Positions 6,402 through 56,830 of a stretch of DNA of 64,000 nucleotides are shown piece by piece. The notes beneath the pieces are model-generated. The model saw nothing but the letters and a program-made list of their open reading frames with translations. It did not search any database and was not told the origin of the DNA. This DNA comes from Ferruginibacter sp. (GTDB taxonomy: Bacteria; Bacteroidota; Bacteroidia; Chitinophagales; Chitinophagaceae), in NCBI GenBank assembly GCA_046329655.1, contig JAXLUD010000007.1, positions 52,282 through 116,281 on the forward strand, read 5' to 3'. Each line of letters opens with the position of its first letter. The stretch's first letter is position 1. The position numbers and the translations under genes were made by a program.

Positions 6402-6890
6402 CTATTTACCAGCCAGTCTTTTTTTTCTCTTTTCCATCCAGTCATCTTCTTTTCCGGCAGTAAAGGCCTGGATCAGTGCTATGATAAAAAGCAGGGCGAT
6501 ATTGCCGGCGAGAAAGGCAATACTGTAACTGCTGAAGTAACCGATATCATATGTACCGGCCGTTAATTTAAAGTAATACCACAGGTCGGCCACCAGCACC
6601 ACCATGCAAACACAAAATGCCAGCACAAATAAAAGCTGCGAAATTATTTTTACAGGACACGACGGATGCTTTTTTGTGCGGCTGATAAATATATAATATA
6701 CCGCCGCAAAAAGTGCCGGAGGAAGTGCCACTACGACCAGTTCATAGAACACATCCACCGGGTGTGAGGCAAACACTTTGAAAAAGCCATAAAAGAACCC
6801 GATAAAAAGCGCCACTATAACCGGTACGGCCAGGAACAATCCAAATACCAGGAAATAAAGCTTTGAATATTTTGTAAACCGGTCTTCCAT
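6402..6890 (-). CDS. hypothetical polytopic membrane protein
   Basis: 162 aa with four hydrophobic segments; tightly packed with the downstream M42 gene. No family recognised. Confidence 0.55.
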   Translation of the reverse strand: MEDRFTKYSKLYFLVFGLFLAVPVIVALFIGFFYGFFKVFASHPVDVFYELVVVALPPALFAAVYYIFISRTKKHPSCPVKIISQLLFVLAFCVCMVVLVADLWYYFKLTAGTYDIGYFSSYSIAFLAGNIALLFIIALIQAFTAGKEDDWMEKRKKRLAGK

Positions 6891-6892
6891 AT

Positions 6893-8002: not shown

Positions 8003-8027
8003 TTAACTGTTATTTAGAGAGGCAAAA

Positions 8028-8858: not shown

Positions 8859-9304
8859 CAGGGTATATAGTAAATGGGTTTCCCTGTCCTGAGCACATTG
8901 CTTTTATTCTTTGCAAAATCCTTTATGTAAATATCAAAATAAATCGTATCCCTTACATTGACCGGCACACCGATAAACTGTTTCATGAAAATTTCAATAT
9001 CCGCTTCAAAATTTTTGCCTGCAATGGGCTTGATATTTGGCAGGTAGGCTGAATCAAATTTATTGGTACGCAGGTTTTTTATATATATCATGGAAGTGTC
9101 CTGGCCATTGATGAATCCAAGGTCGCCTTCTGCGTCGGTAACATGCAGGGTGATCACCGGGTAATCTTCATCAGCGATAAGTCCGCCCCGGTAAAAATCA
9201 GGTTTTACAGACACAAAACTCAGTTGCGGTTCAGATGTAAACTTATCTTTTTTACAGGAAGCAATTAATATTCCGCCTATAGCAATGAGTAGGATGTACC
9301 GCAT
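8858..9304 (-). CDS. hypothetical lipoprotein
   Basis: 148 aa with a lipobox-like signal MRYILLIAIGGILIASC. Confidence 0.6.
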   Translation of the reverse strand: MRYILLIAIGGILIASCKKDKFTSEPQLSFVSVKPDFYRGGLIADEDYPVITLHVTDAEGDLGFINGQDTSMIYIKNLRTNKFDSAYLPNIKPIAGKNFEADIEIFMKQFIGVPVNVRDTIYFDIYIKDFAKNKSNVLRTGKPIYYIP

Positions 9305-42394: not shown

Positions 42395-42468
42395 GGCTCC
42401 GTAGCTCAACTGAATAGAGCATCTGACTACGGATCAGAAGGTTTCAGGTTTGAATCCTGACGGGGTCA
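42395..42468 (+). tRNA. tRNA-Arg (anticodon ACG)
   Basis: Hand-folded: acceptor ggctccg/cggggtc (two G-U pairs), anticodon stem tctga/tcaga with loop CTACGGA, T-arm caggtttgaatcctg. Confidence 0.9.
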
Positions 42469-42482
42469 CTTTCTAATTAAAA

Positions 42483-42525
42483 AATCCCTTGCAAATCAAA
42501 TGTTTGCAGGGGATTTTTCTTTTTA
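42483..42525 (+). terminator. intrinsic terminator after tRNA-Arg
   Basis: 13-bp stem aatcccttgcaaa/tttgcaggggatt followed by a T-rich tract. Confidence 0.85.
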
Positions 42526-42794
42526 GGGTAATCATTGGGTAAACTTTTTAAAAAATAATGCTATAATATAAATAAACTACCTTTTGGGTTGACCCCATAT
42601 CTTAAAATGGATTTAAAAGGATTTTAAGCCAGTTTAAAATTCAGTATACTCAGTGAGTGGGGGGATATAGTCAATCAAGTTACTTTAAGCCGGAGGAGTT
42701 ATAACTGCATTTAGGTGATTAAACATAGAATCGTTTTATTACCTATTTTTGTTAAAGGTGAAGGACACCTAAAATATTATTCTTACTTATTTTC

Positions 42795-42906
42795 TGTACT
42801 GGAAAAGGTCTAAAATTTCAATAGAACAGGGAAGTATGGTAGGTACACGCAAAAGCGTGGACTTGCTATATTCTGTTCTATAGGGCTTAGACCCCCTTCC
42901 AGTACA
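42795..42906. other. 112-nt multi-stem imperfect palindrome (candidate structured RNA or DNA hairpin)
   Basis: Nested pairings: 42796-42804/42897-42905 (9 bp), 42807-42813/42887-42893 (7 bp), 42821-42829/42873-42881 (9 bp), apical cacgc-aaaa-gcgtg (42846-42859). Confidence 0.5.
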
Positions 42907-42972
42907 AATATGCAATAATCCACGCCTTTTTTATTTAGGGCATGGATATACTCAAATTTTAAAGATTTTTGT

Positions 42973-43329
42973 ATGTCTCATTTATTAGAAAACATTTTTG
43001 GCTTTTGCATCTTTTTGTTTGGCTTATGGCTTTTCTTTTTACTCATTTCATGGCTTTCCAAAATTAGCGGGAAAAGCCTCTCTCACAGAGGGAGTGAAAT
43101 TGTCAATCCAGATGATTTTGAAAATATTTTAAATATCCCCACAAAGATGTTAAAGAAAATAAGACAACCGCTATCAAATAAAGCATCAGAAGGCAAAAAA
43201 GAAAATAGCGATAAGAATTCAACTACTGAATTAGCGAAGTTTCTAAAAGAAATCAGCGAACTTAGAGATAGAAAATTAATCTCAGATAAAGAATATGAAA
43301 TTCTCAAAAAGAAAATACTTAATAGGTAA
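42973..43329 (+). CDS. small membrane protein with C-terminal SHOCT-like domain
   Basis: 118 aa; N-terminal TM (IFGFCIFLFGLWLFFLLISWL) and C-terminal ELRDRKLISDKEYEILKKKILN matching the SHOCT pattern. AT-rich codon usage. Confidence 0.55.
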   Translation: MSHLLENIFGFCIFLFGLWLFFLLISWLSKISGKSLSHRGSEIVNPDDFENILNIPTKMLKKIRQPLSNKASEGKKENSDKNSTTELAKFLKEISELRDRKLISDKEYEILKKKILNR

Positions 43330-43343
43330 TACAGCTTACTTAC

Positions 43344-43835
43344 TTATAAAAATTTAGAGACATCAATATACTTATTTAAAATTTTACCTTTTACCTGGTC
43401 TTTTTCAATCCATTCATAAGCTGTTTTATACAAAAAAATAAATTGTCTTTTAATTTCTTTGATAACCTCAGGCAACTCAGTACCCACACTATATAAATCT
43501 AAATCTGAATTAAACAACTGTAAATTACCAAATTGATTAACAGTCAAAACACAATTGATGTCCCTTTTTAAAATAACAGAATCATCCCCTACTTCAATTG
43601 GAGAATGAATTATGTAAGGAGTCTCAGCAACCTCTTTTGTAAACAAAAGGTTTTCTGAAAGAGTCTTTTTTGTAATCTTAGTAATATCCTCCCCTTCCTT
43701 TAAGTTAATAATTATTTCAATTATTTTATTTTTTTTATTTTCTTCAGCTTCAAATTCCTCAATAGATTTTGGCGGGATTATAATTTGAGAGAATTTTTGA
43801 GAAACTTTGATATTATTTCTGCTGCGATGCGGCAA
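43344..43835 (-). CDS. hypothetical protein, orphan (no ATG anywhere in frame; TTG start or 5'-truncated)
   Basis: 163-codon ORF in 25-30% G+C DNA with no internal Met. Its 5' end coincides with the islet boundary. Confidence 0.4.
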   Translation of the reverse strand: MPHRSRNNIKVSQKFSQIIIPPKSIEEFEAEENKKNKIIEIIINLKEGEDITKITKKTLSENLLFTKEVAETPYIIHSPIEVGDDSVILKRDINCVLTVNQFGNLQLFNSDLDLYSVGTELPEVIKEIKRQFIFLYKTAYEWIEKDQVKGKILNKYIDVSKFL

Positions 43836-43846
43836 CTATTTATTTG

Positions 43847-43860
43847 CGAAACCGTTTTCG
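43847..43860. promoter_or_regulatory. LacI-type operator-like palindrome
   Basis: cgaaaccgttttcg (12 of 14 positions symmetric, CG centre) lies 68 nt upstream of the lacI-family gene. A second accg-N5-cggt is at 43902-43914. Confidence 0.35.
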
Positions 43861-43927
43861 GCAATTGCGGCAGTAAACATATCTTTACGGCAGCATCATG
43901 TACCGTTTTTCGGTCTGATAACAGGCA

Positions 43928-44939
43928 ATGAGTAAACTAACCATCAAACTTTTAGCAAAAGAACTGGGGCTGGCGGTATCCACGGTATCCAAGGCTTTGC
44001 GTGACAGCCACGAGATCAGCGCTGAGACAAAAGCAAAAGTGCTGGAGTATGCGAACAGGCATAATTATGTGCCCAACCCCTATGCCAGCAGTTTGAGAAG
44101 ACAGAAGAGCCGCACCATTGCCGTGGTGCTGCCGGAAGTGGCAGACAGTTTTTTTCACTGGCGATTAACGGTATAGAATCCATCGCCAGGGAAAAGGGTT
44201 ATCATGTGCTTATCTATCTTACCCATGAAAGTGCAGAGCGGGAGGAAGTGATACTGGGCGAATTCAACAGCGGACGTGTGGATGGTATCCTGATCTCTGT
44301 TTCGCAGGGAACACGCGAGGGCAGTCATATCAGGAAGGCGCTGGGCTCAGGTTTGCCCATCGTGTTTTTCGACCGTGTTTGTGATGATGTGGAAACCGCC
44401 AGGGTATCACCGATGATTTTGAAAGCTGTTATATGGCCACCAAGCATTTGATTACTAAAGGATGCAAACGGATCGGTTACCTGTCCTTTTCCAAAAATCT
44501 TTCTATCAATCAAAAAAGGGAAGAAGGTTATTTAAAGGCGCTTGAAGACGGAGGCATCAGTCCTGATAACAGCCTGATGCTGGAATGCGGCAATGATGAT
44601 CATTCGAATTATACCGCTATCCTTAATTTTTTGAAAAGCAAGAGCAGGCCTGATGGTATCATTGCCTCAGTGGAGAAACTGGTGCCACCTGTTTATATCG
44701 CCTGTAATAAATTAAAACTGTCGATACCGGCAGACATCAAGGTAATCAGTTTTACCAATCTCGGCACATCCCCCATCCTCAACCCACCGCTCACCACCAT
44801 TACACAACCTGCATTTGAGATGGGCAGCAAGGCCGCTTCACTCCTTTTCAAGGGAATTGAAAAATCAAATTTTAAACTTGCCGGAGAAACAGTGGTAATA
44901 CCGTCTGCATTGCAGAAAAGGGAATCATCAGATTTTTAG
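43928..44939 (+). pseudogene. LacI family transcriptional regulator, disrupted by two -1 frameshifts
   Basis: The HTH part (43928-44176), middle (44206-44451) and C-terminal part (44433-44939) lie in three frames. Adding one T to the T7 run at about 44150 restores ADSFFSLAINGIESIAREKGYHVLIYLTHES. A second 1-nt gap near 44404 restores ...VITDDFESCYMATKHL. Confidence 0.8.
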
Positions 44940-44945
44940 ATGCGC

Positions 44946-46049
44946 TTATTTCAGTAATTGTTCCAGCTTTCTTTCCAGTGCAGGGCCACGCAGGTTCCGC
45001 CCTACGAGTTTGCCATCGGGATCTACTAAAAAATTCTGCGGGATACTTTGTATCTGGAACTGCTGGGCCACGGCATTACTCCAAAACTGCAGGTCGCTTA
45101 CATGTGTCCAGGTAAGTCCGTCGTCGTGAATGGCTTTTAACCAGTCGTCCTTATGACCGGGCCTGTCGAGCGACACACCCAGCACGGTGAAATTTTTATC
45201 CTTAAACCTGTTATAAGCTGCTACCACATTCGGGTTTTCCATGCGGCAGGGTCCGCACCAGCTGGCCCAAAAATCCACCAGCACATATTTGCCGCGGAAT
45301 GAAGAAAGACTGACTGTTTTGCCGGAAGTATCCGCCTGTGAAAAATCGGGCAGCATATAACCAGTTGCATTTTGTTTGGCCTGCGAAAGCACACCGGCCA
45401 GCCCGGTACTCATGGGAGATGCTTTTACATCGGCCGACAACTGGTTGTACAATGCATCTGCTTTCAGCACATCATCGGTTGACTGGTAATAACGGTAAAT
45501 CGCAAACGGTGTGATGTATGAATTAAGGTGCGTGGCTGCAAAACCATAACTGGCCGCAGCGGCTTTAGTAAATAATACAGAATCGTAGGTGGCGTTTTGT
45601 GCAAATACCGACTGGTAAGGCTGCATCAGCTGTGTGAATGCAGCAAAATCATCGTGTGCAGGCGAACCATTAATATCCAGTTTGTCGGGTGCCGCACTGC
45701 TGCCTTTTACCGTGATGATATTGTTATCAACAAAAATACTGGCATAGGGCTGCATGCGGTTGAACATCAGCAGGCGTATATCAGGCGACTGCATCTTTCC
45801 CTTCAGTTCAAATTTTTCCTTGCTGATGGTGGTTTCCATTTCGGGCATACCACTCTGCGGGTTTACCAGTGACACGGGAGTGCCGTCGGCATAACCTTTC
45901 ATTTCTCCCTTTATCAGGAAACCGTCTGTTGCAGCAACAACCGTTGCCTTTGTTTTTGTTTTAGCCGTTTTTGTACCCGGTTTGGGTTTTACAGTTCTTT
46001 GTGCAAACACGAACCCGGGGAGCAACAGTAACAATAGTATCCGCTTCAT
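44946..46049 (-). CDS. TlpA-family thiol:disulfide oxidoreductase lipoprotein/secreted protein
   Basis: Signal peptide; C-terminal thioredoxin fold with FWASWCGPC active site. Confidence 0.85.
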   Translation of the reverse strand: MKRILLLLLLPGFVFAQRTVKPKPGTKTAKTKTKATVVAATDGFLIKGEMKGYADGTPVSLVNPQSGMPEMETTISKEKFELKGKMQSPDIRLLMFNRMQPYASIFVDNNIITVKGSSAAPDKLDINGSPAHDDFAAFTQLMQPYQSVFAQNATYDSVLFTKAAAASYGFAATHLNSYITPFAIYRYYQSTDDVLKADALYNQLSADVKASPMSTGLAGVLSQAKQNATGYMLPDFSQADTSGKTVSLSSFRGKYVLVDFWASWCGPCRMENPNVVAAYNRFKDKNFTVLGVSLDRPGHKDDWLKAIHDDGLTWTHVSDLQFWSNAVAQQFQIQSIPQNFLVDPDGKLVGRNLRGPALERKLEQLLK

Positions 46050-46093
46050 AGTCTTTATTAATAGTGCAATTTACTCCGTTTTACCTATACGGT

Positions 46094-46918
46094 TTAACGG
46101 ATGATATTTTTTAAGAATTCTTTTGTGGCAGCGGCAATATCCCCGGCATTTTCAAGCACTTTAATATAAGCGCTGCCAATAATAGCACCATTCGTGTACT
46201 GGCTGGCCGCCTCAAAACTTTGCTGATCCCAGATGCCAAATCCCACCAGCACAGGATTTTTTAACTGCATATCATGCAATTTTTTGAAATAGTCTTCCTG
46301 CGCTTCAACTGGCTTGTTTTTCCCTGTAGTGGATGAGGAGGAAACGGCATAGATAAACCCGCTGCCCAGTGCGTCAATTTTACGGATGCGTTCCTCACTG
46401 GTTTCAGGCGTTACTAAAAATATCATATCCAGGCCCTGCGATTCAAACAGGGCTTTATACTGGGTTTCATATTCATACATGGGCAGGTCAGGCAGTATGA
46501 TCCCGTCGATCCCCACTTCTTTTGCTTTGGCACAAAAATTTTCTATCCCGAACTGCATTACAGGATTGAGATAACCCATCAGGATCAATGGTACATGAAT
46601 ACTGCCGCGTATCCCCGACAACTGTTCAAACAGCCGGGTGATCGTCATGCCGTTTTGCAAAGCCACGGCACTGCTGGCCTGTATCACTTCACCATCCGCC
46701 AGCGGGTCGCTGTAAGGCATGCCGATTTCGATGATATCCGCTCCACCTTCCTGTAATGCCTGCAACACAGCAACGGTTGAATCCGGTTTGGGATACCCTG
46801 CTGTACAATATATGTTGAGTACTTTTTTTGACTGGCTGCTGAACAAATCCTGTAAACGGCTATGCCCCCTGAATCCCCCTGCAGGGGGACTTCCGAAGCT
46901 TTCAGTATGTTGATCCAT
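46094..46918 (-). CDS. trpA: tryptophan synthase alpha chain (N-terminal 19 codons encoded by insertion-derived sequence)
   Basis: IYCTAGYP, IEIGMPYSDPLADGEVIQ and GFGI motifs. The only in-frame ATG is at 46918, 3 nt after the DUF559 stop. Confidence 0.9.
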   Translation of the reverse strand: MDQHTESFGSPPAGGFRGHSRLQDLFSSQSKKVLNIYCTAGYPKPDSTVAVLQALQEGGADIIEIGMPYSDPLADGEVIQASSAVALQNGMTITRLFEQLSGIRGSIHVPLILMGYLNPVMQFGIENFCAKAKEVGIDGIILPDLPMYEYETQYKALFESQGLDMIFLVTPETSEERIRKIDALGSGFIYAVSSSSTTGKNKPVEAQEDYFKKLHDMQLKNPVLVGFGIWDQQSFEAASQYTNGAIIGSAYIKVLENAGDIAAATKEFLKNIIR

Positions 46919-47394
46919 CTTTTATTTATTTGACAAGCTTTCGCTTAATTTAATAATTGTTGTTGTAATGGTTTTAGTTACATCCGGCAGATTACACCTT
47001 ACCTCTTCATTGGTAAAACGCAACACTTCTATTCCAAAGTCATGGAGATCATTCTCCCGTATTGCATCCTGCGCTTTTATATCCTGTCCTAAATGAATCC
47101 CTCCGTCAATTTCAATAACCAGCCTTAATTCATGACAATAAAAATCCGCAATGTACATCCATATGGGATGCTGCCTGCGAAATTTAAAACCCATTTTATT
47201 TGCTGATAAACAGTTCCACACAATTCTTTCTTCATGGGTCATGTTTTTCCGCAGGTAAGCCGCATTTTCAAAAATGGGTTTTATGGCAACAAAGTGCATA
47301 TCCTTTTTCATAGAGCAAGTCATTATGCACGAACAACAAAAGAGCTGTAAACCAGCAGGCTCTCTAAAGTCCCCCCACAGGGGGATTTAGGGGG
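46865..47394 (-). mobile_element. DUF559 cassette bounded by 28-bp inverted repeats
   Basis: IR-L at 46865-46892 (ccccctgaatccccctgcagggggactt) matches the reverse complement of IR-R at 47367-47394 (ccccctaaatccccctgtggggggactt) at 25 of 28 positions. The cassette sits exactly between the trpB stop and the trpA body. Confidence 0.5.
46922..47323 (-). CDS. DUF559 (Vsr-like endonuclease fold) domain protein
   Basis: LRKNMTHEERIVWNCL..FKFRRQHPI..YIADFYC...LVIEIDGGIH pattern of DUF559 proteins. Confidence 0.8.
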   Translation of the reverse strand: MTCSMKKDMHFVAIKPIFENAAYLRKNMTHEERIVWNCLSANKMGFKFRRQHPIWMYIADFYCHELRLVIEIDGGIHLGQDIKAQDAIRENDLHDFGIEVLRFTNEEVRCNLPDVTKTITTTIIKLSESLSNK

Positions 47395-48570
47395 TTACAT
47401 CTGCTGCATATACGTTGCCAGGTCCTTATCCCCCCTTCCGCTGAGGCATACCACCACGACATCATTTTTATTGAAGTTGATCATCTTGAGTGCATGCAAT
47501 GCATGTGCACTTTCCAATGCAGGAATGATCCCTTCGAGTTTGCAGAGTTCAAATGCCGCATTCAATGCTTTGTTATCAGTGGCGCTCATAAAAATGCCGC
47601 GGCCGCTCTCGAACAAATGTGCATGCAGCGGACCAATACCGGGATAATCCAGTCCGGCCGAAATACTGTGCGGCTCCACCACCTGCCCGTCTGCCGTTTG
47701 CATTACAATACTTTTACTGCCATGCAAAATACCCGGTGTGCCCAGTTGCGTGGTGGCAGCACTTAAACCGCTGTTGATGCCATGGCCTGCCGCTTCCACT
47801 GCAACCAGCTTCACCTCTTCCTGGTCTAAAAAATGATAAAATGCCCCGGCGGCATTACTGCCACCACCTACACACGCCAGTACATAATTTGGATTTTCGC
47901 TGCCGGTTTTTTCCAATAACTGTTTTTTAATTTCTTCACTGATCACACTCTGGAACCTCGCCACCATATCAGGATAAGGATGCGGCCCCACCACGCTGCC
48001 GATGATATAATGTGTGTCCACCGGGTTGTTGATCCAGTCGCGGATGGCTTCATTGGTGGCATCCTTTAATGTTTTACTGCCGCTGGTAGCCGGCACAACG
48101 GTGGCTCCCAGCATTTTCATTCTGGCCACATTCGGCGCCTGGCGTTCGATATCTTTTTCGCCCATGTACACAATGCACTCCAGCCCTTTCAGTGCACAAA
48201 CGGTGGCGGTGGCCACGCCATGCTGACCGGCACCTGTTTCGGCAATGATTCTTTTTTTACCCAGTCGCTGTGCCAGTAAAATCTGGCCGATCGTGTTGTT
48301 TATTTTGTGTGCACCGGTATGACAAAGGTCTTCCCGCTTTAAATAGATTTGTGCTTTATACCTTACACTCAGCCGCTCTGCCAGGAACAACGGTGTCGGT
48401 CTTCCCACATAATCCGTCAGCAATTGCTGAAACTCTTTCTGGAAATCCTCCGCATAGATGATCTGCAAATAATTCTCCTGCAGCTCCTGCACATTCGGGT
48501 GGAGCATCTCGGGGATATAGGCCCCGCCGAAATTTCCGTAATAGCCTTGTTCGTTAACTGTGTAATTCAT
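47395..48570 (-). CDS. trpB: tryptophan synthase beta chain
   Basis: From ATG 48570: [21 protein letters not shown]; PLP-lysine motif HTGAHKINN; GGGSNAAG. Confidence 0.95.
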
Positions 48571-48697
48571 TTTACTATTTTTTACTTGCCTGCCGAAGCA
48601 ATGCGAAGGCATGGCAGCAAGCATTTGCAACTTTGTTCAGTATCGTTGTGTCACTAACTTAAACCTTTATCTTTTGTTCATCTTTTATCTTAGCATA

Positions 48698-48723
48698 GTT
48701 GCTGGTCAGGCGACCAGTAAAGG
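48698..48723. repeat. GC hairpin H1 (ctggtc-aggc-gaccag), inverted copy of H2
   Basis: gttgctggtcaggcgaccagtaaagg compares with the reverse complement of 49665-49690, gttgttggtcaggcgaccaacaacgg (about 22/26 identical by eye). The two loops are in opposite orientation. Confidence 0.6.
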
Positions 48724-48740
48724 CGGAATTGAACCGTTTT

Positions 48741-49244
48741 TTACTCTTCTAAATAAACATAATCCTCCCCATTTTCAAACCCTTTCAAATATTGACTCAT
48801 AATATCCTCTTTTGTAAGAAACTTATCTTCCATTAGCTCCCATGTAAGCCTAATTAGACTTAGATACAATGTTGTAAGAGATGGATTCAGGCAAAAGATC
48901 GAACAATAACGTGTTTTAGTGTTATACTCAAATGAATAAGTAATTTCAGTGCTCTTTCGAAATAAATCAATAACTCCGTCTATAAAAAACCCATCTGTTA
49001 TTAAGGGTGGATATTCGTATTTTAACCAAGATTTGAATTCATGAAAAAACAAATACCTTCCATTTTCAAATGCTTTTAGCCTCTCATAAAAACAAATTAA
49101 ATAATCAAGACAAAATTTAGTTTTCGATTTAGAGGTTTTAAAGTTCTTATAATAACAAGTAATATCGTTTGTTTTTGGAACATCGGTTCTTTGAAAACTT
49201 ATTTCAAATAAAAACTTACTACTATTCACTATTTTTTTTTGCAT
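48741..49244 (-). CDS. hypothetical protein, orphan (AT-rich cassette gene 2)
   Basis: 167 aa, ATG start, same strand as the trp operon, about 27% G+C (hand count 49021-49080). No recognisable motifs. Confidence 0.55.
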   Translation of the reverse strand: MQKKIVNSSKFLFEISFQRTDVPKTNDITCYYKNFKTSKSKTKFCLDYLICFYERLKAFENGRYLFFHEFKSWLKYEYPPLITDGFFIDGVIDLFRKSTEITYSFEYNTKTRYCSIFCLNPSLTTLYLSLIRLTWELMEDKFLTKEDIMSQYLKGFENGEDYVYLEE

Positions 49245-49314
49245 TTAACAAAATTTCGATGCACAGAATACTTACATATAAAACAGAACCCTTTTAAATG
49301 ATGAAAATCCTCAA

Positions 49315-49563
49315 TTATCTTTCAAGTTTATCTATCTCAGCTCTAATAGAATCGTAAAGCAAAGGAACGGTTTCGTAAAGTAAGTTCTTTACCCATTTAC
49401 CCTTATCATCTTTATATAAATTAAATGTTTCTTGCATTCCATAGCCGGCACCTAAAACAACTTTATACAACTTGCCATTAACCTTTATTCCATTTATCTC
49501 TATTTGATCATCTATAATATCATAATATCCGTTTCGATTTTCCTTTTCTAAATTAATATCCAT
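49315..49563 (-). CDS. hypothetical small protein, orphan (AT-rich cassette gene 1)
   Basis: 82 aa, ATG start, 70 nt upstream of the 167-aa ORF on the same strand. No recognisable motifs. Confidence 0.5.
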   Translation of the reverse strand: MDINLEKENRNGYYDIIDDQIEINGIKVNGKLYKVVLGAGYGMQETFNLYKDDKGKWVKNLLYETVPLLYDSIRAEIDKLER

Positions 49564-49666
49564 TGTTTATAATTTTTGAATTACCAAAAAACTTACACCA
49601 CTGTCGCCTCTATAGGACTTAACAAAACAACTTGGTCATTTTATTATCAAGATGCCATCCTTAGCC

Positions 49667-49690
49667 GTTGTTGGTCGCCTGACCAACAAC
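49667..49690. repeat. GC hairpin H2 (gttgttggtc-gcct-gaccaacaac)
   Basis: Perfect 10-bp stem; inverted counterpart of H1 on the other side of the two orphan ORFs. Confidence 0.6.
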
Positions 49691-49832
49691 ATTATACATC
49701 ACAAACTGTCACCCCTACAGAGCTTACTAAAACAACCTGTTCATTTTTCTACCAACATGCCGCTCTGCTGGAGTCAAATACAATACCACTTCAATCTCCT
49801 AAACAATCTGCACTGTCATCCCCTCCCTCATC

Positions 49833-49859
49833 AGTTCCCCCTTTAGGGGGCGGAGGGGG
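49833..49859. repeat. third copy of the C5/G5 hairpin motif
   Basis: agttccccctttagggggcggaggggg has the same architecture as IR-R (aagtccccccacagggggatttaggggg) and directly abuts the trpF' stop. Confidence 0.6.
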
Positions 49860-49861
49860 CC

Positions 49862-50488
49862 TCACTTCATCCCCTGCTTAAACAGCAGCACCTGTGCCAT
49901 ATCTTTCACGCCCGGTTCTTTTTCAAATTTGCTGTTTACATCCACTCCATAATAGTCAGGATGTTTAAACCGCTTTAGTTTTTCAATATCCCCCACTCCA
50001 ATTCCCCCACTCAGGAAAAAGGGCTTTTCAATTTTGGCCTTGCTCAGCACTTTCCAGTCAAACTGCTTGCCGGTGCCACCGCTTTCGCCATTGCTTTTTG
50101 TATCAAACAAATAATAATCGCATACGGCATCATAATCGGCCACCAGCGCATCAATATCTTTGGTATCCGCATCAATGGGGAATACCTTGATCACTTCCAC
50201 TTCACTACTGAGGTCTTCGCACATTTCCGGACTCTCATCGCCGTGCAGCTGCACCACATCCAGCCCGTATTCATCAATGGCATCCAGCACATCGATCATT
50301 TCGGGATCTTTGAATACGCCTACTTTCTTCAAATCAAAATCCGCATTTTTCACAGCATCCTTATCCAGTTTGTCACCCACATAACGCGGAGAGTCTTTGA
50401 CAAAGATCAGCCCTGCAAATTCAATATTCAGTCCGTCTAATTGCTGCAGCTGTTTCAGCTGGGTAATGCCGCATACTTTAATGTTCAT
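49862..50488 (-). CDS. trpF: phosphoribosylanthranilate isomerase, paralogue 2
   Basis: MNIKVCGIT..., VQLHGDESP, LFDTK...GGTGKQFDW, FFLSGGIG: the full TrpF signature. Confidence 0.85.
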   Translation of the reverse strand: MNIKVCGITQLKQLQQLDGLNIEFAGLIFVKDSPRYVGDKLDKDAVKNADFDLKKVGVFKDPEMIDVLDAIDEYGLDVVQLHGDESPEMCEDLSSEVEVIKVFPIDADTKDIDALVADYDAVCDYYLFDTKSNGESGGTGKQFDWKVLSKAKIEKPFFLSGGIGVGDIEKLKRFKHPDYYGVDVNSKFEKEPGVKDMAQVLLFKQGMK

Positions 50489-50504
50489 TGTTTCTTATTT
50501 TAGG

Positions 50505-50544
50505 TCACTAATTACACGAATTCCACCAATTACACTAATTGCTG
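50505..50544. repeat. nonanucleotide-period array (TNCACNAAT x4)
   Basis: TCACTAAT|TACACGAAT|TCCACCAAT|TACACTAAT, spanning the trpF stop and the trpF-trpF' spacer. Confidence 0.7.
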
Positions 50545-51159
50545 TATGAATCCTTTTATTTTTTCCATATCCTTTATTCCTGTTGTTACTTCAAACCTGC
50601 TGCAAAGGTCTATCGCAAACAGGGCTTTTGCTTCCGGTCTTTGTGCAAATGCATTCAATGCGGCTGCATCGTTCTCATCGATCATGCCGCTTAAAAAATA
50701 CGGCTTGCCCACCTGTACCCCGTGCAGTTTTTCCAGGTTCAGTTTTTTGCCCGTACCGCCATACCCAACGCCTTCCGTATCAAACATGAACATATCGCAG
50801 TAACTCATGTATTCCTGTATGCGGTAACCGATATTATCCGTTTCGCTGAAGCGGAATGCCTTTACCACCGAAATATAGTCTGCAATTTTTTCGCAGTATT
50901 TGGGGGTCTCATCGCCATGGAGCTGCACCATATGCAGCCGGCATTCATCCACCATGTGCAGCACTTCATCCACGGAAGCATTTACAAACACGCCCACCTT
51001 GTTGATACTGTTTTCCTTTTTGATCTGGTTGGTGGTCATATGCCGTAATACATACCGCGGCGATTTTGGATAAAAAATAAATCCGGCAAAAGAAGCGCCG
51101 GCTGCAGGAAGCTCCTTCAGCTGCTCTTCATGCGTGATGCCGCATACTTTTACTCTCAT
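50530..51159 (-). CDS. trpF: phosphoribosylanthranilate isomerase, paralogue 1 (divergent phosphate-binding loop)
   Basis: MRVKVCGIT..., VQLHGDETP, MFDTE..YGGTGKKLN, but SGMIDEND in place of SGGIG. ATGA overlap with trpC. Confidence 0.85.
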   Translation of the reverse strand: MRVKVCGITHEEQLKELPAAGASFAGFIFYPKSPRYVLRHMTTNQIKKENSINKVGVFVNASVDEVLHMVDECRLHMVQLHGDETPKYCEKIADYISVVKAFRFSETDNIGYRIQEYMSYCDMFMFDTEGVGYGGTGKKLNLEKLHGVQVGKPYFLSGMIDENDAAALNAFAQRPEAKALFAIDLCSRFEVTTGIKDMEKIKGFIQQLV

Positions 51160-51947
51160 GTAACTTTTGCTTTAAGTTGTTGAACAAATGCAGCAAAAGC
51201 AATCGCCGGGTCAGGCGCCTTCATAAAGTTTTCCCCGATCAGAAAACCTTTGAAACCTGCCCGTTTAAAAGTACAAATAGTATCTATATCGCTGATACCG
51301 CTCTCCGCAATTTTTACTTTATCAGCGGGTATTTTTTTTCCCAATTCCAGCGACCTGTTAATATCCACCGTAAAAGTTTTCAGGTCGCGGTTATTAATGC
51401 CCACAATGGCTGTTTCATCACAAATATGCCCCAGTTCCGTTTGGTTGTGTATTTCCAGCAGTACTTCCAGTTGCAGGCTTTTTGCAAACTTTGCCAATTC
51501 CTGTACCCGCTGCGGGGTTAAGCAGGCTGCAATCAGCAATATCACATCAGCGCCCATGGCCCGGGCTTCTGTTATCTGGTATTCATCTATGATAAAATCC
51601 TTGCGCAAAATGGGTATCGCATTTACCCTTGCCTTTTCAAGATCAGCAGAGATGCCGCCAAAAAACATTTCATCAGTCAGCACCGACAGGCAACTGGCCC
51701 CATTGGCCGCATAGGCGGTTGTAACTTCCACCACATCCGCAGTGCCATTGATCGTTCCCTTTGATGGCGACTTTCTTTTAAACTCTGCTATGATGCCGGT
51801 TTTGTTTTCGTCGAGCAGGAATTGTTTGAGCGAAAATACCGGGCGATTGTAAAAGGCAGACTGCTGTAATTGTGTAACCGGGGCAGCAGCCTTTCTTTCG
51901 GCCACTTCAATCTTTTTTTGTGCAATAATTTTATCCAGTATATTCAT
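51156..51947 (-). CDS. trpC: indole-3-glycerol phosphate synthase
   Basis: IIAEFKRKSPSKG, LSVLTD..FF.G, ILRKDFIIDEYQI motifs. Confidence 0.95.
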   Translation of the reverse strand: MNILDKIIAQKKIEVAERKAAAPVTQLQQSAFYNRPVFSLKQFLLDENKTGIIAEFKRKSPSKGTINGTADVVEVTTAYAANGASCLSVLTDEMFFGGISADLEKARVNAIPILRKDFIIDEYQITEARAMGADVILLIAACLTPQRVQELAKFAKSLQLEVLLEIHNQTELGHICDETAIVGINNRDLKTFTVDINRSLELGKKIPADKVKIAESGISDIDTICTFKRAGFKGFLIGENFMKAPDPAIAFAAFVQQLKAKVT

Positions 51948-51949
51948 GG

Positions 51950-52939
51950 TTACCGGCCGGTGATTTTTAAAAGTGAATTGTATGCTTTACCGCTTTCAAG
52001 GCTTTCCACAGCTGCACGGTAACATTCGTCATAATGATTGTATTTTCCTGTGCATTGAAGCGCCATGGCCGCATTGCTGAGCACTACGGCATTCTGCGCC
52101 CAGCTGCCTTCGCCTTTGATGATTTTCAAAAACAATTTAGCCGCTTCTTCAGCCGTGTTGCCGCCATAAATATCTGCGGCGCTTACGGTGCGTTTGCCCA
52201 GTTGTTCGGCACTGTATATTTTTTCACCGGCCGCTGTGATCACTTTTGTATCACCCGTAAGCGATATCTCATCATAACCATCGAGCGAATGGATAATAGT
52301 GAAATTATTACCCGTAGGCTGCAGCAGGTAATTATAAATGCGTGCCATTTCCAGGCTGTACACACCTACCAGCTGGTGTTTGGGAAATGCGGGGTTCACC
52401 ATAGGACCGAGCATATTAAAAAAGGTACGCACGCCCAGGTTTTTCCGGATTGGCCCCACCGCTTTCAATGCAGGATGAAACACCGGCGCATGCAGGAAAC
52501 AGATATTGGCATCATCCAGTTCTTTTTGCAATGTGCCCGCATCATTTTTAAAAGTATAGCCCAGCTGCTCCATCACATTGCTGCTGCCGCTTACGGAAGT
52601 GGCACCATAATTACCATGCTTGGCCACTTTATGCCCAGCGCCGGCCACGATAAAACAACTGAGTGTGGAAATATTGAAAGTGTTCTTGCCATCGCCGCCG
52701 GTACCCACGATATCGATCACATCGCCATCTTCCAGGTTTACACGCACACAGAGTTCCAGTAACGCATCCCGGAATCCCTGCAGTTCTTCAATGGTGATGC
52801 TGCGCATTAAGAATACCGTGATAAAAGCCGCCACTTCACTTTCATTGTACTGGTTTTTTGAAATATTTACCAGCACTTCTTTGGCCTGCGCACGCGTGAG
52901 TGTTTTGTATTCGAAGAGATAGTTGAGTATTTTTTTCAT
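51950..52939 (-). CDS. trpD: anthranilate phosphoribosyltransferase
   Basis: DIVGTGGDGKNTFNIST and KHGN....S.SGS motifs; 329 aa. Confidence 0.95.
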   Translation of the reverse strand: MKKILNYLFEYKTLTRAQAKEVLVNISKNQYNESEVAAFITVFLMRSITIEELQGFRDALLELCVRVNLEDGDVIDIVGTGGDGKNTFNISTLSCFIVAGAGHKVAKHGNYGATSVSGSSNVMEQLGYTFKNDAGTLQKELDDANICFLHAPVFHPALKAVGPIRKNLGVRTFFNMLGPMVNPAFPKHQLVGVYSLEMARIYNYLLQPTGNNFTIIHSLDGYDEISLTGDTKVITAAGEKIYSAEQLGKRTVSAADIYGGNTAEEAAKLFLKIIKGEGSWAQNAVVLSNAAMALQCTGKYNHYDECYRAAVESLESGKAYNSLLKITGR

Positions 52940-52944
52940 TTTTT

Positions 52945-53062
52945 TATAACACGAATTTTACGATTTATGGCACTAATTCTACGAATTGCACTAATTACAC
53001 GAATTATTTACACATGAACTGATACTTAGAACTTACTACTTATAACTTATAACTCATCACTT
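52945..53062. repeat. 9-nt array (NNCACGAAT family) followed by 7-nt array (ANNACTT family)
   Basis: AACACGAAT|TTTACGATT|..GCACTAAT|TCTACGAAT|TGCACTAAT|TACACGAAT, then ATGAACT|GATACTT|AGAACTT|ACTACTT|ATAACTT|ATAACTC|ATCACTT. ATAACTT is the reverse complement of the AAGTTAT words at 15287-15343. Confidence 0.8.
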
Positions 53063-53630
53063 ACACCTCCAGCCAATTCCTCAAAATCTGTTCCCCCATT
53101 GGCGTCAACACACTTTCCGGGTGAAACTGCACACCCTGAATATCGTATTTCCTGTGCTGCATGGCCATGATAAAACCGTTTTCATCGACGGCAGTCACTT
53201 CCAGCTCAGCAGGAAAATATTCATTACTTACGATCCAGCTGTGGTAGCGGCCCACTTCTATATTTCGCGGAAGCCCTTTAAACAATTTGCAATTGTCAAT
53301 TGTCAATTGACAATTAGTGGCCACGCCATGATACACTTTGCTTAAGTTGGTAAGCCTGGCGCCAAATGCTTCGCCGATTGCCTGGTGACCCAAACAAACA
53401 CCGAGTATGGATTTGGTGGCTGCATACTCCTTTATCAGCGGCAACAGCAATCCTGCTTCTTCTGGAATACCGGGGCCGGGAGATAAAATGATCTTATCAA
53501 AGTCCTTCACTTTTTCCAGCGCTATTTCATCATTGCGGTATACATCTACTTTCTGGTGCAGTATCTTTTCCACGAGGTGCACCAGGTTATAAGTGAAGGA
53601 GTCGTAATTATCGAAGACGAGTATTTTCAT
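53061..53630 (-). CDS. trpG: anthranilate synthase component II (glutamine amidotransferase)
   Basis: GPGIP, GVCLGHQAI (catalytic Cys), GVQFHPES triad region; 189 aa. Confidence 0.95.
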   Translation of the reverse strand: MKILVFDNYDSFTYNLVHLVEKILHQKVDVYRNDEIALEKVKDFDKIILSPGPGIPEEAGLLLPLIKEYAATKSILGVCLGHQAIGEAFGARLTNLSKVYHGVATNCQLTIDNCKLFKGLPRNIEVGRYHSWIVSNEYFPAELEVTAVDENGFIMAMQHRKYDIQGVQFHPESVLTPMGEQILRNWLEV

Positions 53631-53713
53631 GTTGTTAATTGGTTCATGGTTGATGGTTCATGGTAAATACACTGTTCTGCTATAAGCCATGAACTATTAG
53701 CGATGAACCATTT
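53631..53713. repeat. heptamer arrays in inverted arrangement (CATGGTT / CCATGAA family)
   Basis: ATTGGTT|CATGGTT|GATGGTT|CATGGTA ... CCATGAA|CTATTAG|CGATGAA|CCATTTC fill the trpE-trpG spacer. Confidence 0.8.
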
Positions 53714-55132
53714 CTAAATGGTTTCCGCCAAAACAATGGCCTGCTTCAGTGCATTTAATTTATTATTTACTTCCTGTAATTCACTTTCCGGATTACTGGC
53801 CACCACCACACCGGCACCAGCCTGGTATATCAGTGTATTGTTCCTGCTTAAAAAAGTTCGTATCATGATGGCATGATTTACTGTGCCGTCAAAACCCACG
53901 AAGCCAATGGTACCGCCATAATAACTCCTTGCTGTCGGTTCATTACTGTCGATCAGCTGCATGGCTTTAAATTTTGGTGCGCCGCTCAGTGTACCGGCAG
54001 GAAAAGTGGTGGCGATCAGTTTGAAAGGGTTGCTGCCAGCCTGCACCAGACCTGTTACTTCACTTACCAGGTGTATCACGTGGCTGTAATAATTGATCTT
54101 TTTGTATTGTGATACTTCCACCTGGCTGCACATGCGGCTCAGATCGTTCCTCGCAAGGTCTACCAGCATTACATGTTCTGCATTTTCCTTTTCATCGGCT
54201 TCCAGTTTTACAGCAAGCGCCTTGTCTGTTTCATCATCTCCCGTGCGCCGGAATGTTCCTGCGATGGGATGCACCACGGCCTTGCCATTTTGCACGATCA
54301 GCTGGCTTTCGGGCGACGAACCCATCAGTTTATAATCACCATAATCAAAATAGAATAAATACGGGGAAGGGTTGATACTTCGAAGTGCACGGTAAACATT
54401 GAATTCATCCCCGGTGAACTGCTGTTCAAATTTGCGGCTCAGCACGATCTGGAACACATCCCCCCTCAGGCAGCTGGCAATCCCTCTTTTAACCATATCG
54501 ATATAGGCTTCATTGGTAAGATTGCTGCTTTCTGTTCCTTTCACTGCAAAAGGAAAAGTGGGCACATCTTTGCTGCGGATCAGGCTTTCCACCACGACCA
54601 GTTCAGATTCCACACCTGCAACCTGGTTTTCACAGATGAACAACTCATCTTTAAAGTGATTGATCACGATGATATACTGGTAAAGACGGTAGCGCATCAG
54701 AGGTATCTCATTATTCGCAGGCTGTTTATCAACGTTCAGTTTTACCGTTTCAAAAAACTGCACGGCATCATAAGTGCTGTAACCAAACAATCCCTGTGCA
54801 ACATTAACCGGCTTTGGAACGGCACTGCTGATTTCAAAACGCTGCATAAAATCCCACAGCTGTTGCGGCACTGCAGCCGTATCGCTGATGATGATCTTTT
54901 CGGGTGTTTGCCCGGGCAGTTTAAATTCTATCTCGGCCTTGTTCCTGATCTCAATACCGGCAATGGCATTGATCCCGATAAAAGAATAACTGTTCTCTCC
55001 CGCATGAAAATCGGTGCTCTCCAGCAAAATGGTATCCCTGAAACGGTCACGCAGCCGCAGGTAAATGCCCACAGGAGTGTACACATCTGCCAGCATTTTT
55101 TTAAACGAGGTTTGTATTTGTATTTTTTTCAT
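53714..55132 (-). CDS. trpE: anthranilate synthase component I
   Basis: From ATG 55132: MKKIQIQTSFKKMLADVYTPVGIYLRLRD; LSGAPKFKAMQLI and YGGTIGF motifs. Confidence 0.95.
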   Translation of the reverse strand: MKKIQIQTSFKKMLADVYTPVGIYLRLRDRFRDTILLESTDFHAGENSYSFIGINAIAGIEIRNKAEIEFKLPGQTPEKIIISDTAAVPQQLWDFMQRFEISSAVPKPVNVAQGLFGYSTYDAVQFFETVKLNVDKQPANNEIPLMRYRLYQYIIVINHFKDELFICENQVAGVESELVVVESLIRSKDVPTFPFAVKGTESSNLTNEAYIDMVKRGIASCLRGDVFQIVLSRKFEQQFTGDEFNVYRALRSINPSPYLFYFDYGDYKLMGSSPESQLIVQNGKAVVHPIAGTFRRTGDDETDKALAVKLEADEKENAEHVMLVDLARNDLSRMCSQVEVSQYKKINYYSHVIHLVSEVTGLVQAGSNPFKLIATTFPAGTLSGAPKFKAMQLIDSNEPTARSYYGGTIGFVGFDGTVNHAIMIRTFLSRNNTLIYQAGAGVVVASNPESELQEVNNKLNALKQAIVLAETI

Positions 55133-55150
55133 TTTTAGAACAGTAATAAA

Positions 55151-55177
55151 TAAAAACCCCGGCATCCTGTGCCGGGG
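55151..55177 (-). terminator. trp attenuator terminator
   Basis: The - strand reads ccccggca-cagga-tgccgggg followed by ttttta. It lies between the leader peptide stop and the trpE ATG. Confidence 0.85.
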
Positions 55178-55218
55178 TTTGAATATGTTTCATGACATAA
55201 TACAACAGTGCGGCACAA

Positions 55219-55272
55219 TCAGCTTGCTGAATGCCACCACCAGTTGTTGTTATGTGTATAGTTATTTTTCAT
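55219..55272 (-). CDS. trp operon leader peptide MKNNYTHNNNWWWHSAS
   Basis: Hand translation of the - strand from ATG 55272 to TGA 55219 gives three consecutive TGG codons at 55234-55242. Confidence 0.8.
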   Translation of the reverse strand: MKNNYTHNNNWWWHSAS

Positions 55273-55338
55273 TTCCATTGCAAATATGTGGTAGATTTAG
55301 AAAATAAAAAAATTTTTATCCCATAAATCTTGTCGACA

Positions 55339-55632
55339 ATGGAAATTAAACACCGGAAAGATGGCAGCAAGGGTGCCTTTTACATTGAGGAAAACAGCCG
55401 GCTTCTGGGCGAAATGACCTACAGCATGGCCGGGCCCGGACTCATGATCATTGATCACACAGAAGTGGATGATGCGCTGAAAGGACAAAATGCGGGCCTG
55501 CAGCTTTTGAACAAGGCGGCTGATTTTGCAAGGACCAACCAGCTGAAAATAATTCCGCTTTGCCCTTTTGCAAACGCCATGTTTAAAAGAAAGCCCGAAG
55601 TATTTGGCGACCTGCTGCATAAAAGCGAATAG
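55339..55632 (+). CDS. GNAT-like N-acetyltransferase (YjdJ-type small acetyltransferase)
   Basis: 97 aa from ATG 55339: FYIEENS..LGEMTY......MIIDHTEV...L.GQ..G..L........AR....KIIPLCPFA. Confidence 0.7.
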   Translation: MEIKHRKDGSKGAFYIEENSRLLGEMTYSMAGPGLMIIDHTEVDDALKGQNAGLQLLNKAADFARTNQLKIIPLCPFANAMFKRKPEVFGDLLHKSE

Positions 55633-55672
55633 CCGGGTGTTTAATCATTATCTTTATTAAAAACTATATTGT

Positions 55673-56305
55673 ATGGTGCTGGCAATTTTCGGTGCCACCG
55701 GGCAGGTGGGCAGGCAACTGGTGAAACAGGCTTTATTCGGCGGTCACCAGGTAAAGGCTTTTGGACGTAATGTGTTTACAGAATTTAACAAGGATGAAAA
55801 AAACCTTGAATTGGTAAAAGGCGGCGTGTTTGACGAGAAAGATGTATATCATACCATCATGGGATGCGACGCCGTGCTTTCGGCGCTGGGCGGCAGTTTC
55901 GACGGAACAGATAAAAGCCGTTCGCTCGGCATGAAAAATATTGTTCAGCAAATGCAAAAGGCCGGCGTGAAGCGCATTGTGGCACTGGGAGGCATGGGCA
56001 TTTTAAATTATGATGAGAACACTTTGCTGATAGATACAGAAGACTATCCCAAAGAATATATCCCTGTGGGCAATGAACACCGCAAGGCATATGAATATTT
56101 AAACAACAGCGGGCTCGACTGGACCTTTGTATGCAGCCCCGACATCATCAATGCCGATGCAACGGGCGAATTTATTACCAGCGCCAACTATCCGCCCCAG
56201 CCCAATAAGTTTAAGATCAATGCAGGCGACCTGGCCTTGTTTATGCTGGGTGAAGTGAGTAAGAATAATTATGTAAAGGAACGTGTGGGGATTAGTATGC
56301 AATAG
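55673..56305 (+). CDS. NAD(P)H-binding protein (atypical SDR / NmrA-BVR-B-like)
   Basis: N-terminal IFGATGQVGRQLV Rossmann motif; 210 aa. Confidence 0.8.
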   Translation: MVLAIFGATGQVGRQLVKQALFGGHQVKAFGRNVFTEFNKDEKNLELVKGGVFDEKDVYHTIMGCDAVLSALGGSFDGTDKSRSLGMKNIVQQMQKAGVKRIVALGGMGILNYDENTLLIDTEDYPKEYIPVGNEHRKAYEYLNNSGLDWTFVCSPDIINADATGEFITSANYPPQPNKFKINAGDLALFMLGEVSKNNYVKERVGISMQ

Positions 56306-56830
56306 CCCAATCTTTTAATTTCCATCTTTAGCAACAGTTAACAGCGGAGCATTAAAAATAATGCTCCGCATGAGATGCTTTACATCCGGCTTATTGCTTC
56401 ACCATTGTAAAAGTATATTTATCTCCGGGCTGGTTTACACCGGTGGCATAAAACATCAGTGGCTGGAGAAATATGTAAAAAACAGCGGAAAATAGTTTAA
56501 CCTGCCTGCCCGGTAAGGGAAGGTTTTGTTCCAAACATTTGTTCATTGCCCGGCATCGTTGTGTCACTCACTTTGAGGACATGACGCTGCTGGGCTTTTA
56601 TTTTTCTGTGTTGCCGGTACCCCCTCTGCCATTTTCACCATCACTTCTATCACACAAGGAATTTAGTACTGCCATCAAGGCATTTCATAAACCACCATCC
56701 CAAAAACGCTTGCAAATCCCCGCTTTACTGTTTATATTTCTGAAACTATTGAACAGGCGGTCACCTTCCTTATTATTCTCAGCCCTGTTTGCAATTATAT
56801 ATTCAACCTTAACACCCAAAACAACCAGGC

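Follow-up and report, generated by a model that had tools for sequence, protein, structure and literature searches.

The tryptophan (trp) operon of a Ferruginibacter sp. metagenome-assembled genome (MAG) carries, in the spacer between trpF′ and trpB, two open reading frames (ORFs) of no recognizable family, here termed ORF82 and ORF167. The window referred to throughout is the whole 64-kb stretch of DNA that was analyzed, in which the operon is read on the minus strand. The two ORFs are probably a strain-specific, horizontally acquired pair of orphan genes (ORFans) that has no part in tryptophan synthesis and that occupies a hypervariable position in the operon. Both are orphans of atypical composition, they are co-oriented within an old operon, and the content of the same position differs in relatives.

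A Hypervariable Spacer between trpF and trpB

A scan with TrpF′ yielded 80 Chitinophagaceae trp loci, which were annotated with the window proteins and in which the intergenic gaps were measured. The trpF–trpB gap, measured in 70 loci, ranges from 0 to 3254 bp with a median of 604 bp and exceeds 1 kb in 17; the trpB–trpA gap (66 loci) ranges from 0 to 2025 bp, with a median of 73.5 bp and 6 gaps over 1 kb. The former holds 52 operon-strand ORFs of at least 80 aa, distributed over 38 loci and falling into 22 clusters, 15 of which are singletons. When ORFs of at least 100 aa in both gaps are considered, 72 lie on the operon strand versus 4 on the opposite strand. Within the Ferruginibacter clade, the content differs in nearly every genome. 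From this comparison, the trpF–trpB spacer appears to be a permissive hotspot whose content has been replaced repeatedly, as does the trpB–trpA spacer to a lesser degree.

The identifiable cargo is diverse. The commonest is a GNAT acetyltransferase (16 of the 70 loci); DUF559 nucleases (18 ORFs, both gaps combined) and a second trpF paralogue (five loci) also recur. Genes of conflict type include HigB with a helix-turn-helix (HTH) antitoxin matching PD-Lambda-2 A/B (locus L043), putAbiC/AbiP-like proteins (L007 and L030), and a PDC-S31/DUF2971 protein (L076, E 7e-51). T5orf172 (L033), CPCC, redoxin, and pentapeptide proteins are also present, along with many orphans. In L053, a REP-associated tyrosine transposase (RAYT; REP, repetitive extragenic palindromic) lies between trpF and trpB (6701–7264; NCBIfam, 96 bits, above the cut-off), and a copy 70% identical to it lies between trpD and trpC in L084 (4441–4998). 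The GNAT proteins, of about 165 aa, form a single cluster (cluster1; L017, 6645–7154, and 15 other loci) that is spread over genera; instead of being random cargo, this gene may be a semi-conserved accessory of the operon.

No homolog of ORF82 or ORF167 was found in any of the 80 loci. The different content in relatives and the lack of relatives of the pair there indicate that ORF82 and ORF167 are one more occupant of the spacer and not a trp accessory gene set. The proposal that they might be ordinary conserved accessory genes, named in the initial annotation as an outcome that would count against an undescribed system, has in its favor their location inside the operon on the operon strand; given their absence from 80/80 related loci, and the location of the sole ORF167 homolog outside a trp operon, it can practically be dismissed.

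The limits of the replaced segment emerge from the closest relative, L012, in which TrpF′ is 93% identical. Homology to the window runs from 50488 to 49727 by blastn, extends to about 49700 through a 57-nt repeat (repeat A) by MAFFT alignment, and resumes from 48728 to 47404; an unrelated 195-aa orphan lies between the breakpoints in L012. This comparison places the replaced segment at 49700–48729, between repeat A and the hairpin H1, which is described below. Over approximately 48800–49700, G+C falls to 24%–31% versus 45%–55% in the flanking genes (ORF82, 29.3%; ORF167, 28.0%; whole window, 44.7%), and the codon-position G+C of the segment is atypical. The low G+C (29% versus 45%), together with the atypical codon positions, argues for a foreign origin of the segment. 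The initial annotation had placed both ORFs on the operon strand, co-oriented between trpF′ and trpB, in AT-rich DNA; its coordinates were confirmed, and its hand counts of G+C (26.7% at 49021–49080 and 51.7% at 48001–48060) were exact. It had labelled the downstream copy trpF′; this gene, present in all 80 loci, is in fact the widely conserved trpF orthologue, and the upstream trpF is an extra paralogue. That extra upstream copy is found in the Ferruginibacter clade, whereas Lacibacter and others have a trpF1-like paralogue within the variable gap, on the downstream side of trpF.

ORF167 Defines a Two-Member Protein Family

ORF167 (source name U0V75_12255) is a real gene and a member of a two-member family, a conclusion drawn from a shuffle test and from a distant homolog. 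None of 5000 shuffles of the segment yields an ORF that reaches the length of ORF167, which stays intact in DNA of 28% G+C, where stop codons are frequent. The homolog, P0004, is a protein of 180 aa with 30% identity over 154 residues (E 1.4e-11), and it is the only true one among 1.84 billion cluster representatives in a full HMMER scan; a profile search with ORF167 and P0004 added no further members. Word-indexed searches of 5.8 billion proteins, made with both ORFs, brought up nothing but the same strain. A second candidate, P0003, was rejected as spurious, being a 4135-aa tandem-repeat translation in which one 38-residue stretch matches 14 times.

The gene for P0004 does not belong to a trp operon; it is one of the small orphan genes that make up an AT-rich islet flanked by two paralogues (locus L005). 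The ORF that precedes it there (63 aa, beta-rich) shows no significant pairwise similarity to ORF82 (E 0.028), and the ORF82–ORF167 pair as such has been seen in one independent lineage only. The islet contains a run of seven small co-oriented orphan ORFs (6771–8923), four of which encode predicted membrane peptides of 59–65 aa; the run sits between a 752-aa gene and the apparent start of that gene's tandem paralogue, and a HEPN/nucleotidyltransferase pair is found 6 kb upstream.

An AlphaFold2 model of ORF167 reached a mean confidence (pLDDT) of 55 and gave no match among PDB folds in Foldseek at E below 0.5, the model being too poor to show that a match is absent.

ORF82 Is Probably a Gene

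ORF82, separated from ORF167 by 70 nt, is probably a gene as well. Predicted from the single sequence, its AlphaFold2 model has a pLDDT of 73.6 and consists of three long beta strands and a C-terminal helix, and G+C at its first codon position exceeds that at the second, as in coding sequence. Foldseek returned nothing better than E 0.5 for this model among PDB folds, so that the structural comparison suggested in the initial annotation produced no fold match for either protein. Copies of ORF82 that are 99%–100% identical occur in the same context in the same population in other metagenomes. Over five independent assemblies, a single nucleotide polymorphism was found, which is non-synonymous (K to N).

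Comparisons of both proteins with Pfam, NCBIfam, PHROGs, PADLOC, and PDB sequences gave no meaningful match, in agreement with the earlier view that they belong to no recognizable family; a 15-bit match to CEP192 in the family scans was taken as noise. Neither protein has a transposase domain, and phage, plasmid, and IMG/VR collections contained nothing related to either. Lack of conservation in any other genome had been named beforehand as an outcome that would count against the pair; this applies to ORF82, for which nothing was found beyond its own strain, and not to ORF167, which has P0004.

The features of the operon region are collected in Table 1.

Table 1. Features of the trp operon region in the window, in the direction of transcription.
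Feature	Position	Strand	Remarks
trp leader peptide (WWW) and attenuator terminator	55154–55278	-	upstream of trpE
trpE	53714–55165	-	followed by trpG, trpD, trpC
trpF (upstream copy)	50530–51159	-	extra PRAI paralogue
trpF′ (PRAI)	49862–50488	-	5′ flank of hotspot; Pfam PRAI 1.5e-37; orthologues 72%–93% identical in 80 Chitinophagaceae loci
C5/G5 hairpin motif	49837–49859	-	directly after trpF′ stop; backbone repeat
Repeat A	49705–49761	-	backbone element; 57-nt unit from a second family of hairpin repeats; conserved in L012
Variable (replaced) segment	48729–49700	-	contains H2, repeat B, ORF82, ORF167; 29% G+C
H2	49664–49690	-	REP copy in opposite orientation to H1; identical to family consensus
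Repeat B	49600–49656	-	second 57-nt copy, 77% identical to repeat A; just upstream of ORF82
ORF82	49315–49563	-	82 aa, isoelectric point (pI) 4.9; relatives only within own strain
ORF167	48741–49244	-	167 aa, pI 6.6; founder of two-member protein family
H1	48698–48724	-	older, diverged REP copy at 3′ edge of variable segment; backbone; 6-bp stem, -9.1 kcal/mol
trpB leader	48571–48697	-	conserved, non-coding, about 130 nt; upstream of trpB; alignable in at least 12 Ferruginibacter-clade loci
trpB	47395–48570	-	3′ flank of hotspot
DUF559 gene	46922–47323	-	between trpB and trpA
trpA	46094–46918	-	

A second AT-rich islet occurs elsewhere in the window, at 42400–43900 (31.5% G+C at 43001–44000). 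It is flanked by a carboxylate-amine ligase-like gene and a LacI-type regulator, and it contains a 118-aa ORF with an N-terminal transmembrane segment on the plus strand and a 163-aa ORF on the minus strand.

Hairpins H1 and H2 Belong to a Dispersed REP Family

The initial annotation described the pair as bracketed by GC hairpins in inverted orientation. These are indeed present as a 27-nt inverted pair, 85% complementary, with 939 nt between the copies, but they do not represent cassette-specific terminal inverted repeats. Their 14-nt core, TGGTCAGGCGACCA, occurs at only these two places in the 64 kb versus an expectation of 0.32. H2 folds with -15.7 kcal/mol (z -5.3) and H1 with -9.1 kcal/mol (z -3.0). 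On the plus strand, H2 reads GCCGTTGTTGGTCGCCTGACCAACAAC and equals the consensus of 144 metagenome copies among the contigs listed, from which H1 deviates at four positions. The consensus can be written cCGCCGTT-GTTGGTCGCCTGACCAAC-AAC, with a conserved asymmetric CCGCC head.

The exact 18-mer GTTGGTCGCCTGACCAAC was found in at least 120 metagenome contigs, with up to four copies per contig and in both orientations. Its conservation in these contigs (L086–L205), which range from 31% to 57% G+C, is unusually strict for a REP over what are apparently many Bacteroidota genomes, and tandem arrays with periods of 55, 93, and 310 nt are seen in L155, L132, and L097, respectively. In about 19 of the 120 contigs listed, the 18-mer directly flanks the gene for a protein of about 175 aa; in L114, L118, L092, L107, L109, L190, and others, the protein has 173–175 aa and lies approximately 30–100 nt from the 18-mer. 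These proteins carry the motifs PNHIH and YIHNNP, and the three that were scanned matched NCBIfam REP_Tyr_transpos with E values of 2.6e-18 to 4.4e-22, at scores of 66–78 bits, just below the 80-bit cut-off. The H1/H2 family thus has the properties of a REP, namely a short imperfect palindrome in many intergenic copies in both orientations, and it flanks RAYT genes in the metagenome contigs, whereas the 64-kb window itself contains no RAYT gene. RAYTs (TnpAREP) of subclass 2.6 from Bacteroidetes, which corresponds to Bertels group 5, are characterized by the signature NH[LIV]H / YIH[QN]NP (PMC6006769), and the 173–175-aa HuH-Y1 proteins flanked by the H1/H2 family fit this signature. By these similarities, H1 and H2 are members of a REP family that is widespread in Bacteroidota and accompanies RAYT genes elsewhere.

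The two copies seem to differ in history. In L007, L012, and (in degenerate form) L017, an H1-type hairpin occupies the corresponding position before trpB, preceded by cargo unrelated to ORF82 and ORF167, such as an AbiC-like gene in L007. That these relatives keep H1 beside different cargo shows that H1 is an ancestral element of the operon backbone. H2 is absent from its position in all 80 related trp loci, in which only two REP copies were found altogether; its inverted sequence and the H1 equivalent of L007 show 100% identity over 26 nt. Two independent short-read assemblies of the same population (L002 and L004) break within 15 nt of H2, which could reflect strain heterogeneity at the junction or low coverage.

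REP pairs in metagenome contigs bracket RAYTs, toxin–antitoxin (TA) pairs, a methionine aminopeptidase, a methyltransferase, lipoproteins, and an RHS toxin with its immunity gene. Because housekeeping genes are bracketed too, REP bracketing is no signature of a mobile cassette, and the use of REP pairs as cassette markers was abandoned. Individual cases are a YefM/YoeB pair, confirmed by Pfam (L106, 1313–2114); an RHS-type toxin C-terminus followed by a 109-aa putative immunity gene, recognized by eye (L183, 2594–4288); and a putative HigB-like/HTH pair, also recognized by eye (L127, 11982–13218).

Other Repeats and the trpB Leader

A direct repeat overlooked in the initial annotation flanks H2. 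Its copies, repeats A and B, lie 105 nt apart, and the 57-nt unit occurs only in these two copies in the window, with none expected. Repeat A is related to AAGCCCCGTAGGGGCGGCAG arrays of L008 and L013, and a GCCCYGTARGGGC hairpin related to both repeats recurs at other trp junctions of relatives. The C5/G5 motif on the upstream side, which had been likened to that at the DUF559 gene, is present as described; it is, however, a backbone repeat found at several trp junctions, and it follows trpF in L008, L010, L011, L012, and L021. C5-N4-G5 palindromes at 49837–49850, 47371–47384, and 46875–46888 give six strand matches versus 0.99 expected. In relatives, both the C5/G5 motif and the GCCCYGTARGGGC hairpin occur, with few exceptions, on the operon strand, a bias typical of transcribed intra-operon REPs (PMC3733652). 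Neither the 57-nt repeats nor the C5/G5 motif fold better than shuffled sequences. The palindromes at 47371–47384 and 46875–46888 bracket the DUF559 gene; since the latter lies inside the annotated 5′ end of trpA, the true trpA start is probably further downstream.

The last ~130 nt before trpB are conserved whatever cargo precedes them (L006–L025) and end in a small hairpin of varying sequence, such as GGCAAAGCC, CCGCAAGGCGG, or CCCGCAAATCGGG. RNAalifold gave no consensus RNA structure for this leader, which could be an internal promoter or a 5′ untranslated region. Rfam models detected no omega-RNA or other family in 46000–56500.

Transcription Signals

A leader peptide, MEMKNNYTHNNNWWWHSAS, with three consecutive Trp codons is encoded upstream of trpE (55219–55278, minus strand) and is followed by a terminator hairpin at 55154–55180, which confirms the Trp attenuator proposed earlier. 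The accompanying statement that no intrinsic terminator separates trpF′ from trpB held up as well: a scan of the operon strand located no terminator-like site in this interval. The Bacteroidetes promoter consensus TTTG-N17-23-TAnnTTTG had no match in the operon region. The lack of a terminator between trpF′ and trpB in an attenuator-controlled operon makes read-through plausible, and co-transcription of ORF82 and ORF167 with the trp operon is a plausible prediction from these signals.

Discussion

The comparisons favor the view that ORF82 and ORF167 are a horizontally acquired ORFan pair residing in a variable spacer. The donor would have been an AT-rich Bacteroidota-like genome or element, and the segment would have been installed by recombination with breakpoints at repeats, after repeat A and just before H1. 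H2 may have been co-imported with the segment or may represent a later REP insertion. The two genes, which have no recognizable promoter or terminator of their own, would be expressed by read-through from the Trp-attenuated operon promoter. As for their role, a small accessory conflict module (immunity, toxin–antitoxin-like, or anti-phage) is the likeliest suggestion, and a tentative one, because in relatives the non-housekeeping cargo that could be identified here is in large part of the conflict type; that the pair is a selectively neutral passenger is nearly as likely. It is solely the company kept at the site that suggests a TA or defense function.

Several observations weigh against this reading or against parts of it. 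With respect to the acquisition, the insertion points vary, with cargo following directly after the trpF stop codon in L009, L017, L022, and L023, and hence no single recombination site or mechanism is demonstrated; exact-protein look-ups with trpF′ and trpB retrieved no cassette-free allele of the same species. With respect to the pair, no homolog of ORF82 came up outside its own strain, and its length alone gives it marginal support as a gene, since 4.9% of shuffles produce an ORF of at least 82 codons; pairing with ORF167 has been seen in a single independent lineage. With respect to function, neither protein matches toxin, antitoxin, defense, or immunity models, and a PADLOC-DB 2.0 scan gave zero families for either at E up to 1, while the same scan found PD-Lambda-2, PDC-S31, and AbiP/AbiC in the cargo of relatives. 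The pI of ORF167 (6.6) and the 70-nt gene spacing likewise do not favor a conflict module, and GNAT, the commonest cargo, is not a conflict gene. With respect to expression, consensus promoter and terminator scans are weak evidence, Bacteroidota promoters being poorly captured by them; the trpB leader could hold an internal promoter, in which case trpBA would be independent of read-through and the insertion might even be polar.

Of the alternatives, the one that survives best, although it is unlikely, regards the pair as a self-contained two-gene TA or minimal defense cassette that moves as a unit, with its own inverted GC hairpins as ends. The order of the genes, with a small acidic protein ahead of one of middle size, would suit such a cassette, as would the location of inverted hairpins exactly at both edges of the variable segment, the presence at the same site in relatives of HigBA/PD-Lambda-2 (L043), AbiC-like (L007 and L030), and PDC-S31 (L076) genes, and a YefM/YoeB pair between two inverted copies of the same REP (L106). 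However, H1 stands beside unrelated cargo in L007, L012, and L017 and did not arrive with the cassette, and the hairpin is a generic REP found between all kinds of genes, housekeeping genes included. The proteins themselves lack a match in PADLOC, Pfam, or NCBIfam, ORF167 is not basic (pI 6.6), an intergenic gap of 70 nt separates the genes, and the only ORF167 homolog is not paired with an ORF82 homolog. The resemblance to type II TA systems, such as HigBA in L043 or YefM/YoeB in L106, is thus one of layout (an adjacent pair of small genes in the same orientation, with an acidic product from the first) and of position, as such modules occupy the same hotspot or a REP-bracketed position; in contrast to them, ORF82 and ORF167 have no TA sequence or fold similarity, and ORF82 has no recognizable DNA-binding domain.

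Somewhat less likely still is that the segment is passenger DNA, neutral or in decay, left over from a phage or other mobile element, and that ORF82 may be no gene at all. The integrity of ORF167 at 28% G+C, its length, which no shuffle among 5000 matched, and its conservation at the protein level (30% identity over 154 residues) are difficult to reconcile with decay, and ORF82 shows a pLDDT of 73.6 from a single sequence and GC1 above GC2; phage, plasmid, and IMG/VR collections hold no relatives of either. On the other hand, the extreme AT richness, the lack of homologs of ORF82, the 4.9% chance frequency of an ORF of its length, and the non-synonymous nature (K to N) of the sole polymorphism over five assemblies are what passenger DNA would show, and the frequent replacement of cargo at the site points to weak selection on what it contains.

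Mobilization by a RAYT is improbable. In such a scheme, the inverted REPs would be the ends of a gene-carrying unit resembling a REPIN (a paired REP element), moved as single-stranded DNA (ssDNA). The inverted REPs stand at both edges with their CCGCC heads inward, H2 is a perfect consensus copy, implying recent origin, pairing of H1 with H2 across the cassette is predicted in the folded strand, and RAYT genes do occur inside trp operons (L053, trpF–trpB; L084, trpD–trpC). Yet H1 is ancestral and diverged (85% to H2), the window lacks a RAYT in its 64 kb, REP copies number only two in 64 kb and only two in the 80 related trp loci, metagenome REP pairs bracket arbitrary genes in either relative orientation, and gene-carrying REPINs are not described in the REPIN/RAYT literature found. 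H1 and H2 further differ from classical REPINs, which are short-spaced and gene-free, in being 939 nt apart with two genes between them. A bolder and comparably improbable idea is that the spacer is a dedicated cassette-exchange site, an ssDNA analogue of the integron, at which REP hairpins and a HuH (RAYT) transposase would swap promoterless cassettes, and tryptophan starvation would, via the attenuator, turn on conflict genes like the ORFan pair.

A true integron-type gene cassette, with H1 as attC, is very improbable. Promoterless, co-oriented ORFs followed by an imperfect palindrome, and replacement of cargo at one site among relatives, do recall such cassettes. In contrast to attC sites (57–141 bp), the hairpin is a near-perfect palindrome of 24–27 nt without the R″/L″...L′/R′ architecture or GTTRRRY and RYYYAAC boxes in the required order, the genes adjoining the site are trp genes and include no integrase, the point of insertion is not the same in all loci, and the hairpin family is RAYT-associated. 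An IS200/IS605-type or miniature inverted-repeat insertion was also rejected, given that there is no transposase domain, no direct repeat at the 49700/48729 edges, and no omega-RNA.

The preferred reading, an ORFan pair acquired by a variable operon spacer, is of a kind already known, as ORFan insertion in an operon and as cargo of a core-flanked hotspot; it is the proteins that constitute new families. ORFans and ORFan pairs insert into native operons and use native promoters, as in sdhCDAB-b0725-sucABCD, and ORFan–ORFan pairs are thought to be imported together (Price, Arkin & Alm 2006, PMC1480536). Like those ORFans, ORF82 and ORF167 are lineage-restricted, atypical in composition, co-oriented in an old biosynthetic operon, and presumably served by the native promoter; unlike them, they share their position with at least 22 unrelated cargo families in one bacterial family, at a recurrent, REP-lined site. 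The core defense hotspots of Pseudomonas aeruginosa (PMC10250203) are similar in having a fixed position flanked by core genes and variable content that includes defense candidates. The spacer differs from them in lying within one transcription unit and in its small (one to three genes), co-oriented (72:4) cargo, much of which, including GNAT, the trpF paralogue, and lipoproteins, is not defense. An intra-operon, REP-lined, co-oriented hotspot in Chitinophagaceae trp operons was not found in the literature searched.

The analysis corrects a misreading to which such islets lend themselves, in that REPs at their edges can be mistaken for the ends of a mobile cassette, its terminal inverted repeats, which they are not. 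As candidates for a new small conflict module, ORF82 and ORF167 are reasonable, though of low priority. More useful than the proteins is their context, a hypervariable site between consecutive genes of an attenuator-controlled amino acid operon. If expression by read-through is true, accessory and defense genes at this site would be coupled to tryptophan starvation, and the site would provide a convenient natural catalogue for mining small Bacteroidota systems of unknown kind.

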